Below, in pieces: positions 9,705 to 12,452 of a DNA stretch of 64,000 nt (position 1 is the stretch's first letter; each line of letters starts with the position of its first letter). The position numbers and the translations under genes are program-made. The stretch lies in NCBI RefSeq assembly GCF_002854065.1, contig NZ_CP024147.1. One strand, 5' to 3'. This DNA is from Escherichia coli (lineage in GTDB: Bacteria; Pseudomonadota; Gammaproteobacteria; Enterobacterales; Enterobacteriaceae). The notes beneath the pieces are model-generated. The model did no database searches, was not told where the DNA came from, and saw nothing but the letters and a program-made list of their open reading frames with translations.

Positions 9705-10339
9705 TGAACAAAGCAAAACGCCTGGAGATCCTCACTCGCCTGCGTGAGAACAATCCTCATCCCACCACCGAGCTTAATTTCAGTTCGCCTTTTGAATTGC
9801 TGATTGCCGTACTGCTTTCCGCTCAGGCGACCGATGTCAGTGTTAATAAGGCGACGGCGAAACTCTACCCGGTGGCGAATACGCCTGCAGCGATGCTTGA
9901 ACTGGGCGTTGAAGGGGTGAAAACCTATATCAAAACGATTGGGCTTTATAACAGCAAAGCAGAAAATATCATCAAAACCTGCCGTATCTTACTGGAGCAG
10001 CATAATGGCGAGGTTCCGGAAGATCGTGCTGCGCTTGAAGCCCTGCCCGGCGTAGGTCGTAAAACAGCCAACGTCGTATTAAACACTGCATTCGGCTGGC
10101 CGACTATTGCTGTCGACACGCACATTTTCCGCGTTTGTAATCGTACTCAATTTGCGCCGGGGAAAAACGTCGAACAGGTAGAAGAAAAGCTACTGAAAGT
10201 GGTTCCGGCAGAGTTTAAAGTCGACTGCCACCATTGGTTGATCCTGCACGGGCGTTATACCTGCATTGCCCGCAAGCCCCGCTGTGGCTCTTGTATTATT
10301 GAAGATCTTTGTGAATACAAAGAGAAAGTTGACATCTGA
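9704..10339 (+). CDS. nth: endonuclease III (DNA glycosylase / AP lyase)
   Basis: 211-aa ORF; helix-hairpin-helix region and C-terminal 4Fe-4S motif CIARKPRCGSCIIEDLC; start overlaps rsxE stop. Confidence 0.95.
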   Translation: MNKAKRLEILTRLRENNPHPTTELNFSSPFELLIAVLLSAQATDVSVNKATAKLYPVANTPAAMLELGVEGVKTYIKTIGLYNSKAENIIKTCRILLEQHNGEVPEDRAALEALPGVGRKTANVVLNTAFGWPTIAVDTHIFRVCNRTQFAPGKNVEQVEEKLLKVVPAEFKVDCHHWLILHGRYTCIARKPRCGSCIIEDLCEYKEKVDI

Positions 10340-10949
10340 AGAAAAGGGGTAACACCGATTACCCCATTGATAACCTTTCTTTATCCTCTTTTAAAACATC
10401 TTTTTAACGTCAATGATGCCATTGCTTAGCGTTATCATCAGGTAATCCGTTTGCGAATAACCAAAAATGCAGGTTAATTGTTTTTTTAATAGCGAAATTT
10501 TCTATTCATTCGTGATCAAGATCACGATGCTGTGGCAATGTAAAAACATTGCAAGAATCAGGTTAAAATCATTTAAATTTACATACGCAACAAATATTGA
10601 CCTACAAAACATTACACTGGCTATTTTTCAGAAACTGGACTATCTCACTAGGAAAAACGCTAAATAGCAGAACATATCGCCGTCAAGCCATCATCCCCCT
10701 CTCAATGCAGTGAAAAAATCTGCCGTTACGTTTTTTGAAAAATTTAACGCTGGATAACATTTCCCGGAATGGTTGAATTCCCCGCCTCAGTTATATGTAA
10801 CAGATTATTACAAAGGACTTGTCTGAAAGTGCAAGATAGTGAACATTACCTGCCGTTTCCCCTCCCACTATAACAATTGCGCGTATGTTTTTTAGACATA
10901 ACGCGAGAAAGCACCCCCGTTAATATGGGATGTAAAAAAAGAGGTAAAA

Positions 10950-12452
10950 GTGTCCACTGCAAACCAAAAACCAACTGAAAGCGTCAGTTTGAACGCTTTC
11001 AAACAACCGAAGGCGTTCTATCTCATTTTCTCGATTGAGTTATGGGAACGTTTTGGTTATTACGGCCTACAAGGAATTATGGCTGTTTACCTGGTTAAAC
11101 AACTGGGTATGTCTGAAGCGGATTCAATCACCCTTTTCTCTTCCTTTAGTGCCCTGGTTTATGGTCTGGTCGCTATCGGCGGCTGGTTAGGTGACAAGGT
11201 ACTGGGTACTAAACGCGTAATTATGCTTGGCGCTATTGTGCTGGCGATTGGTTATGCTCTGGTTGCCTGGTCTGGTCACGACGCCGGTATCGTTTATATG
11301 GGTATGGCGGCTATTGCGGTCGGTAACGGCCTGTTTAAGGCTAACCCGTCTTCTCTGCTTTCTACATGCTATGAGAAAAACGACCCGCGTCTGGACGGTG
11401 CATTCACCATGTACTACATGTCCGTCAACATCGGCTCTTTCTTCTCTATGATTGCTACGCCGTGGCTGGCCGCGAAATACGGCTGGAGCGTTGCGTTTGC
11501 ATTGAGCGTTGTAGGCCTGCTGATCACTATCGTTAACTTCGCCTTCTGCCAACGCTGGGTTAAACAGTACGGTTCAAAACCAGACTTCGAGCCTATCAAC
11601 TACCGTAACCTGCTGCTGACCATTATTGGTGTTGTGGCACTGATCGCTATCGCCACCTGGCTGCTGCACAATCAGGAAGTTGCGCGTATGGCGCTGGGCG
11701 TTGTTGCCTTTGGTATCGTGGTTATCTTCGGTAAAGAAGCCTTCGCGATGAAAGGTGCTGCGCGTCGTAAAATGATCGTTGCCTTCATCCTGATGCTCGA
11801 AGCCATTATCTTCTTCGTGCTGTACAGCCAGATGCCAACGTCACTGAACTTCTTTGCGATTCGTAACGTTGAACACACCATTCTGGGCCTGGCCGTAGAA
11901 CCTGAGCAGTATCAGGCACTGAACCCGTTCTGGATCATCATTGGTAGCCCGATTCTGGCCGCTATCTATAACAAGATGGGCGATACTCTGCCGATGCCAA
12001 CTAAGTTTGCAATCGGTATGGTGATGTGTTCTGGTGCGTTCCTGATTCTGCCGCTGGGTGCAAAATTCGCGTCTGACGCAGGTATCGTGTCTGTAAGCTG
12101 GCTGGTCGCAAGCTATGGCCTGCAGAGTATCGGGGAACTGATGATCTCTGGTCTGGGTCTGGCAATGGTTGCACAACTCGTTCCGCAGCGTCTGATGGGC
12201 TTCATTATGGGTAGCTGGTTCCTGACCACTGCCGGTGCAAACCTGATTGGTGGTTATGTTGCGGGTATGATGGCTGTGCCGGATAACGTTACCGATCCGC
12301 TGATGTCACTGGAAGTCTATGGTCGCGTATTCTTGCAGATTGGTGTCGCTACTGCCGTTATTGCAGTACTGATGCTGTTTACCGCGCCGAAACTGCACCG
12401 CATGACGCAGGATGACGCTGCTGACAAAGCGGCGAAAGCTGCTGTAGCGTAA
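10950..12452 (+). CDS. dtpA: proton-dependent di/tripeptide permease (POT/PTR2 family)
   Basis: 500-aa polytopic membrane ORF with GTG start; recognised (formerly tppB/ydgR). Confidence 0.93.

Follow-up and report, generated by a model that had tools for sequence, protein, structure and literature searches.

The first of two inverted repeats in the nth-dtpA spacer of Escherichia coli, palindrome 1, is almost certainly an operator for cAMP-CRP. The site as such was already known: it was published in 2011, and base resolution followed in 2026. Our additions are its conservation across the family, its position at -331.5, and a fixed-length, fast-evolving spacer next to it. As an explanation of the region as a whole we favour, by a modest measure, that this known CRP operator provides a distal architectural input to dtpA and that the second repeat, palindrome 2, is lineage-specific. 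The distal architectural mode taken by itself is a tentative reading, and dtpA is the gene that we infer to be the target of the CRP site.

The window, i.e., the whole stretch of 64,000 nucleotides that was analysed, stems from an E. coli strain and has the gene order rsxG-rsxE-nth-dtpA-gstA. Across 1,001 bp around the nth-dtpA spacer it showed 10 differences to a K-12 (O16:H48) genome. The spacer lies between the nth stop at 10339 and the dtpA GTG at 10950; it has a length of 610 bp and 36.7% GC, with 32-40% GC in the control region. This length agrees with a preliminary description of the region, which had also placed two repeats about 400 bp upstream of dtpA. Both repeats are present where it had put them, CGTGATCAAGATCACG at 10511-10526 and GCAATGTAAAAACATTGC at 10535-10552, which is 398-439 bp upstream of dtpA. 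The features of the region are as follows.

10346-10365, no strand assigned: hairpin right after the nth stop, GGGGTAAC-ACCG-ATTACCCC, from the inverted-repeat and terminator scans.
10458-10506, no strand assigned: highly conserved block in the ortholog alignment, (A)TTAAC-N9-12-GTTAAT, then a T7 run, then AAATTTCTAT(A).
10509-10528, no strand assigned: cAMP-CRP operator, 20-mer TTCGTGATCAAGATCACGAT, with core 10511-10526 and centre between 10518 and 10519, from matrix, literature and conservation.
10535-10552, no strand assigned: palindrome 2, GCAATGT-AAAA-ACATTGC, an inverted repeat of the E. coli lineage on a conserved ATGT core (10538-10541).
10553-10603, no strand assigned: hypervariable fixed-length spacer linking the distal module to the conserved proximal control region, from ortholog identity.
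10688-10708, no strand assigned: GadX ChIP-exo peak, repressor, -151 (published as NC_000913.2 1710534-1710554).
10775-10834, no strand assigned: OmpR ChIP-exo peak, activator, centred at -46.5 (published as NC_000913.2 1710621-1710680).
10835-10850, plus strand: dtpA promoter, -10 read as GATAGT (10835-10840), transcription start site (TSS) at about 10850 with a 100-nt leader, from the SMRT-Cappable-seq TSS.
10950-12452, plus strand: dtpA (tppB/ydgR) coding sequence with GTG start.

The hairpin behind nth has its T-run, TTTTCTTC, on the minus strand and not on the nth strand, and it is not kept across genera.

Palindrome 1 reads cGTGA-tcaaga-TCACg, which is GTGA-N6-TCAC with a near-consensus spacer. 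Its 7-bp arms surround the 2-nt centre AA and can be extended to 8-bp arms (10510-10527). The half-site of CRP is GTGA and that of FNR is TTGA; FNR was rejected as the factor for palindrome 1 on the basis of the general consensus, as the half-sites are GTGA. OmpR and GadX were also rejected as cognate factors of the repeats, since their ChIP-exo peaks are located elsewhere in the spacer. We scored the site with a symmetrised CRP matrix derived from 39 other Footprint-seq sites, leaving out the site of the window. Palindrome 1 reached 20.6 bits (training median 16.9, range 10.0-21.9) and was the top CRP match in the 64-kb window; the runner-up had 11.4 bits, and the maximum over 30 shuffles was 16.6. 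The bare GTGA-N6-TCAC core is found once in 64 kb with 0.79 occurrences expected, which is not significant. The significance of palindrome 1 therefore derives from the full matrix score together with conservation and published binding, and not from its palindromy.

Binding itself has been reported twice. The supplement of the Genomic SELEX study by Shimada et al. 2011 (PMC3105977) contains the entry "nth> >tppB CGTGATCAAGATCACG 1.71036e+06" among the CRP boxes, and in the main text tppB is presented among the newly found targets of CRP. The Footprint-seq preprint of Wang, Stringer and Wade 2026 (PMC12871828) reports ttCGTGAtcaagaTCACGatg, centred at NC_000913.3 1712342 and assigned to dtpA, with an estimated Kd of 2.1 nM, and counts it among those high-affinity sites that have no previously described site within 500 bp. 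Through these published SELEX and Footprint-seq data palindrome 1 is established as a sequence bound by purified cAMP-CRP in vitro. The preliminary description had considered the cognate factor as not obvious. This view did not hold for palindrome 1, a textbook pair of CRP half-sites that is in print as a CRP box. The suggestion that the repeats are sites for dimeric regulators proved right for palindrome 1; palindrome 2 is not conserved as a palindrome outside E. coli.

The chance occurrence of such repeats was estimated from first-order Markov resamples of the spacer, with 7-bp arms and a loop of 0-6. The resampled spacers had a mean of 0.52 repeats, with P = 0.335 for at least one, 0.13 for at least two, and 0.0135 for two distinct repeats within 45 bp. 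Because of these values (0.0135 versus 0.335) the pair is somewhat unusual, and a single repeat is not. Thus, the statement that such palindromes are unlikely by chance can be kept for the pair within 45 bp only. Likewise, "perfect" applies to the 7-bp arms and not to the whole elements, whose centres (AA and AAAA) are non-palindromic, so that both are strictly inverted repeats.

Conservation was analysed in 80 dtpA loci from species representatives of the Enterobacteriaceae, all 80 of which have nth upstream. A CRP match of at least 10 bits at an offset of -425 to -433 from the dtpA start codon was present in 59 of the 80 loci and in 20 of 29 genus-level groups; shuffled spacers gave a match at the same offset in 0.125%. 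Carriers include Escherichia, Salmonella, Citrobacter, the Klebsiella oxytoca group, Enterobacter, Lelliottia, Atlantibacter and Pluralibacter. The site is lost in Kluyvera, Pseudocitrobacter, Superficieibacter and Phytobacter. Among the 59 matches, columns G4, T5, G6, A7, T14, C15 and A16 are nearly invariant (57-59 loci) and C17 is found in 52, all four bases occur at spacer positions 9-11, and the outermost pair drifts (left T in 41 and C in 18, right A in 15, C in 22 and T in 22). Within the E. coli alleles examined the core is invariant, with only the outermost C changed to A in strain 135. Judged from the alignment, half-sites that are kept around a drifting spacer are typical of a protein-binding site and not of a hairpin, and their maintenance at a fixed offset points to purifying selection on binding. 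The preliminary description had named a lack of conservation in related genomes as one possible refutation; palindrome 1 is kept, and palindrome 2, as a palindrome, is not.

In some loci the nth-dtpA spacer is about 1,060-1,185 bp long instead of about 600 bp (L043, L044, L050, L053-L055, L058 and L068 from Kosakonia and relatives, and L080 from Phytobacter), and only some of these long-spacer loci have a CRP match at -428. In V. cholerae a CRP ChIP-seq peak is known from the tppB<>rfaH spacer, which suggests that the link between CRP and tppB is older than the Enterobacteriaceae.

To relate the CRP site to the dtpA promoter, published coordinates were converted by adding 1977 bp (assumed) to NC_000913.2 positions to give NC_000913.3 and then subtracting 1701823 to give window positions. 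In the SMRT-Cappable-seq data (PMC6131387, supplement file 4) b1634 has one TSS only, 1712673, which is position 10850 of the window, and no TSS is given there for 17123xx-17125xx; a Cappable-seq supplement contained no entries for the region. The TSS that follows from the OmpR and GadX tables agrees with this one to within 2 bp, which backs the shift of 1977 bp. The OmpR peak region includes the conserved GTTATATGTAACAGATTATTACAAAGG of the ortholog alignment. Its position, and the fact that both repeats are inverted, bear out the earlier view that the repeats are not OmpR sites. The TSS comes from one study, and a cAMP-dependent upstream promoter may have escaped its sampling.

Besides OmpR and GadX, YdcI also has a ChIP-exo peak upstream of dtpA. 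In the main text of an Lrp Genomic SELEX study neither dtpA nor tppB is mentioned. At 10604-10770, downstream of the hypervariable spacer and upstream of the OmpR region, the alignment contains strongly conserved blocks, including CTATTTTTCAGAAAC, CTATCTCACTA, AAATAGCAGAACATATCGCCG, GCAGTGAAAAAATCTG and AAATTTAACGCTGGATAACATTTCC. The GadX peak is the only one in this segment, and it sits between the conserved blocks and not on them. A dtpA fusion comprising -201 to +15 shows OmpR-dependent activity, so basal promoter function does not require the CRP site. In three out of four cultures kept in long-term stationary phase, an A-to-T exchange adjacent to the -10 of dtpA appeared, which increased dtpA mRNA about 23-fold (PMC7858067). 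This suggests that the native promoter is kept weak, and it is up-regulation of dtpA that was selected in the starving cultures.

CRP acts in class II position near -41.5 and in class I position near -61.5, -71.5, -82.5 or -92.5. With its centre about 331 bp upstream of the only dtpA TSS found (-331.5 relative to window position 10850), palindrome 1 is at none of these distances, and to our knowledge it is further away than any classical CRP activation site. In a CRP-anchored scan of both strands in 60 orthologs, based on general sigma-70 hexamer frequencies, no conserved promoter of this type was present at a class I or class II distance. The best conserved candidate was a weak -10 on the minus strand that would place CRP at -28.5 (median score 4.9). 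It is on the basis of the large distance to the only TSS found and of this lack of a conserved promoter beside the CRP site that a distal architectural role is proposed.

The distance of the CRP site to dtpA is strongly constrained. Measured from the CRP centre, the dtpA start is 427-431 bp away in all 60 site-carrying loci, and the TGTAACA of the OmpR region is 275-277 bp away in 58 of 60; on the other side, the nth stop lies at a distance of anything between 142 and 757 bp. Within the constant distance, the 51 bp at 10553-10603 show only 41-43% identity with 0 gaps between E. coli and E. albertii, E. whittamii and related lineages, and they are free of indels across about 20 genera. In the same Escherichia comparison the third-codon positions of nth and dtpA have 64-79% identity. 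By this comparison the segment appears as a spacer of fixed length whose sequence is fast-evolving or replaced. A hidden small ORF within the length-invariant 430 bp was rejected: a minus-strand frame looked open in at least 70% of the loci, but its translations have stops at other positions in each species, and stops occur in all frames at varying places. An RNA family behind the invariant length was rejected as well, as Rfam gave sub-threshold noise only. One E. coli locus (L083, strain GZ2408C, NZ_CM172481.1) carries an IS66-family insertion (ISCro1-like; tnpA, tnpB, transposase) at about 10559/10560. It lies just downstream of palindrome 2 and splits the CRP module from the dtpA promoter.

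On the other side of the CRP site, the block at 10458-10506 is the best-conserved part of the distal spacer. It ends 8 bp before the CRP site, and in most loci its TTTCTA begins 20 bp ahead of the CRP centre. Kluyvera, which has lost the CRP site, still has the block, and in Huaxiibacter (L060) it includes a perfect repeat with 8-bp arms, CAATTAAC-N10-GTTAATTG. An intrinsic terminator at the T7 run was considered and rejected due to weak, inconsistent energies and the lack of an alifold consensus. We concluded that the block is neither a terminator nor a recognisable promoter.

The alternative that survives best, which we nevertheless hold to be unlikely, is that the CRP site drives an unmapped promoter of its own that is active only at high cAMP. 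This could be an upstream dtpA promoter with a 300-390-nt leader or the promoter of a short non-coding transcript on either strand. In favour of such a promoter, the CRP site has high affinity and is intergenic, and existing TSS data may have skipped high-cAMP growth; the TSS study reportedly used standard minimal and rich media. The best promoter-like matches in the window put CRP at -57.5 (TAAAAT at 10564-10569), -67.5 (TTGCAA-19-TAAATT) and -115.5 (TTGACC-19-TATTTT, predicted TSS 10634); furthermore, an extended -10-like TGcAAGAAT (10550-10558) overlaps the right arm of palindrome 2, and the minus-strand T-run of the hairpin at 10346-10365 would fit a minus-strand transcript. However, no match puts CRP at -41.5, -61.5 or -71.5, none of the matches is conserved across genera, and the absence of a mapped TSS at 17123xx-17125xx also speaks against such a promoter. 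Neither a plus-strand terminator nor an Rfam match nor a conserved ORF was detected, and the region 10340-10457 is only weakly conserved in the ortholog alignment.

Palindrome 2 consists of 7-bp arms around the 4-nt centre AAAA and is separated from the CRP site by 9 bp. Among 60 distinct orthologs, only the window sequence has the 7-bp arms. The column identities are about 10, 30, 30, 70, 90, 97 or more and 97 or more % for the left arm GCAATGT, and about 20, 0, 20, 60, 80, 70 and 0% for the right arm ACATTGC. Thus, the conserved TGT of the left arm pairs with non-conserved bases of the right arm, which is not the pattern of a symmetric operator. In the E. coli alleles examined the arms are intact, with one loop A missing in strain 536. 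In sister Escherichia species there is either CAATAT-GTAAAA-ATATTG, whose register is shifted, or a repeat with arms of just 4-5 bp. Most non-Escherichia genera (loci L005-L079, at 10527-10555) show (C/T)TGATAAC-N3-4-(A/G)TGTT instead; in several genera this forms TAACA-N3-TGTTA at the position of palindrome 2, and the GATAAC half is lost in E. coli. In 30 of the 56 sequences from outside Escherichia (33 of 60 overall) it is followed by TGT(T/A)-N7-TG(T/C), whose period is 11 bp, a pattern that E. coli fits only via the loose TGC alternative (TGTAA / TGCAA). From these alignments palindrome 2 presents itself as an inverted repeat that is specific to the lineage and shares bases with a conserved ATGT element; it is probably not a conserved operator. 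The base directly before it, 10534, is a common G/C polymorphism, with G in the window and C in the K-12 genome examined; a 50-bp query with the G allele found its match in about 2,540 of 5,426 complete genomes of E. coli, a search that missed the K-12-type (C) genomes, as the polymorphism interrupts the 28-nt word of megablast.

That palindrome 2 is all the same a genuine operator for a dimeric regulator of E. coli appears rather improbable to us, still a little more so than an own promoter of the CRP site. Candidates would be YdcI, a CytR-like partner of CRP, or a response regulator on the 11-bp-spaced TGTAA/TGCAA half-sites. All E. coli alleles examined have intact arms, the CRP site is only 9 bp away, and the P value for two repeats within 45 bp is low, all of which is in agreement with an operator; against it stand the loss of the palindrome even in sister Escherichia species, the altered arm spacing in strain 536, OmpR and GadX peaks that lie elsewhere, and the high P value for a single repeat by chance. 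YdcI does bind upstream of dtpA and recognises an AT-rich motif in the form of an inverted repeat, but the 7-nt gap of this motif is incompatible with an even-length palindrome. CytR promoters typically use two CRP sites, and here there is only one, together with a poor match to the GTTGCATT octamer as generally known. The ArcA half-site is TGTTA, and the 11-bp-spaced TGTT repeat of the orthologs has the stated centre-to-centre spacing of the two repeats of an ArcA box. As a direct regulator in K-12, ArcA was not favoured: tppB appears only in the expression table of an ArcA study, and no ArcA peak for tppB was found in those of its other supplementary files that were searched.

It is also conceivable, with a clearly smaller probability, that CRP binds to palindrome 1 as a non-regulatory or chromosome-shaping site with no transcriptional consequence. 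Such binding would be compatible with the great distance from the promoter, with the full OmpR response of the -201 fusion, and with the fact that Footprint-seq saw CRP bind to 1,217 regions in vitro, many more than known regulated promoters (PMC12871828). In the literature we found neither in vivo occupancy of the site by CRP in E. coli nor CRP-dependent expression of dtpA. Half-sites that are kept in about 20 genus-level groups at a fixed offset, around a spacer that drifts, argue for purifying selection on binding, and the authors of the Footprint-seq study (PMC12871828) themselves regard such intergenic high-affinity sites as likely regulatory. Finally, an action of the repeats as hairpins, be it DNA cruciforms or RNA stem-loops of a terminator or processing site, is highly improbable: predicted DNA folding gave -5.6 and -6.6 kcal/mol (z-scores of -2.5 and -3.6 versus shuffles), but the stems are short and AT-rich, no T-run follows either repeat, the terminator scan was empty at 10505-10560, no known transcript or Rfam match covers the repeats, palindrome 1 is conserved in the manner of a protein site (half-sites kept, outermost C-G pair not kept, spacer free), and palindrome 2 is not conserved.

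According to the reading that we prefer, the distal CRP input, a CRP dimer would bind GTGA and TCAC, six base pairs apart, in the nth-dtpA spacer. Most likely this site would feed the carbon-starvation status into the control of the dtpA peptide permease, and it is the maintenance of the site at a fixed distance from dtpA across the Enterobacteriaceae that makes an input of carbon status likely. A direct class I or class II contact of CRP to RNA polymerase seems unlikely. Rather, CRP may bend the DNA as a distal architectural element within an AT-rich upstream complex that is constrained in length and depends on its geometry; the same upstream control region also binds OmpR, GadX and YdcI. Against this explanation it can be held that other, densely packed sites may account for the invariant spacing, and not the geometry of CRP.

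A more far-reaching version, to which we give little weight, would regard the CRP site as one end of a long-range module of fixed geometry, in which a distal unit is held at an invariant distance from the OmpR-dependent promoter. The distal unit would comprise the ATTAAC-N10-GTTAAT/T7/AAATTTCTATA block, the CRP site and the ATGT element. The distance would be constant within 2 bp over about 280-430 bp, and the link would be a spacer of fixed length with a sequence evolving faster than synonymous sites. If this is true, it would imply looping or wrapping assisted by a CRP bend at about -331. DtpA is the main proton-driven importer of di- and tripeptides in E. coli, and with a conserved CRP input the scavenging of peptides would be coupled to carbon status, beside the inputs by OmpR, GadX and YdcI.

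Comparison with known systems reveals partial similarities in each case. The 11-bp spacing found in many orthologs in the sequence aligned to palindrome 2 matches the one stated for the ArcA box and is that of direct repeats of the OmpR/PhoB family, but the repeats are degenerate in E. coli, and the OmpR peak is 240 bp away. In the pap fimbrial region CRP binds about 215 bp upstream of papBA, where it acts with Lrp and against H-NS. The dtpA region resembles pap in having a single far-upstream CRP site, an AT-rich region occupied by several proteins, and GATC sequences. It differs from pap by its larger distance, we found no evidence for Lrp, phase variation or H-NS at dtpA, and its two GATC motifs are simply part of the CRP consensus. 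With the CRP operators of E. coli (TGTGA-N6-TCACA) the dtpA site shares the symmetric GTGA/TCAC half-sites, the 6-bp spacer and a nanomolar affinity in vitro, and its TC...GA spacer is close to the consensus. In contrast to this consensus, the outermost bases of the half-sites are C/G and not T/A, and unlike the usual CRP operators the site is located at -331.5 from the only TSS found, which is neither a class I nor a class II position.
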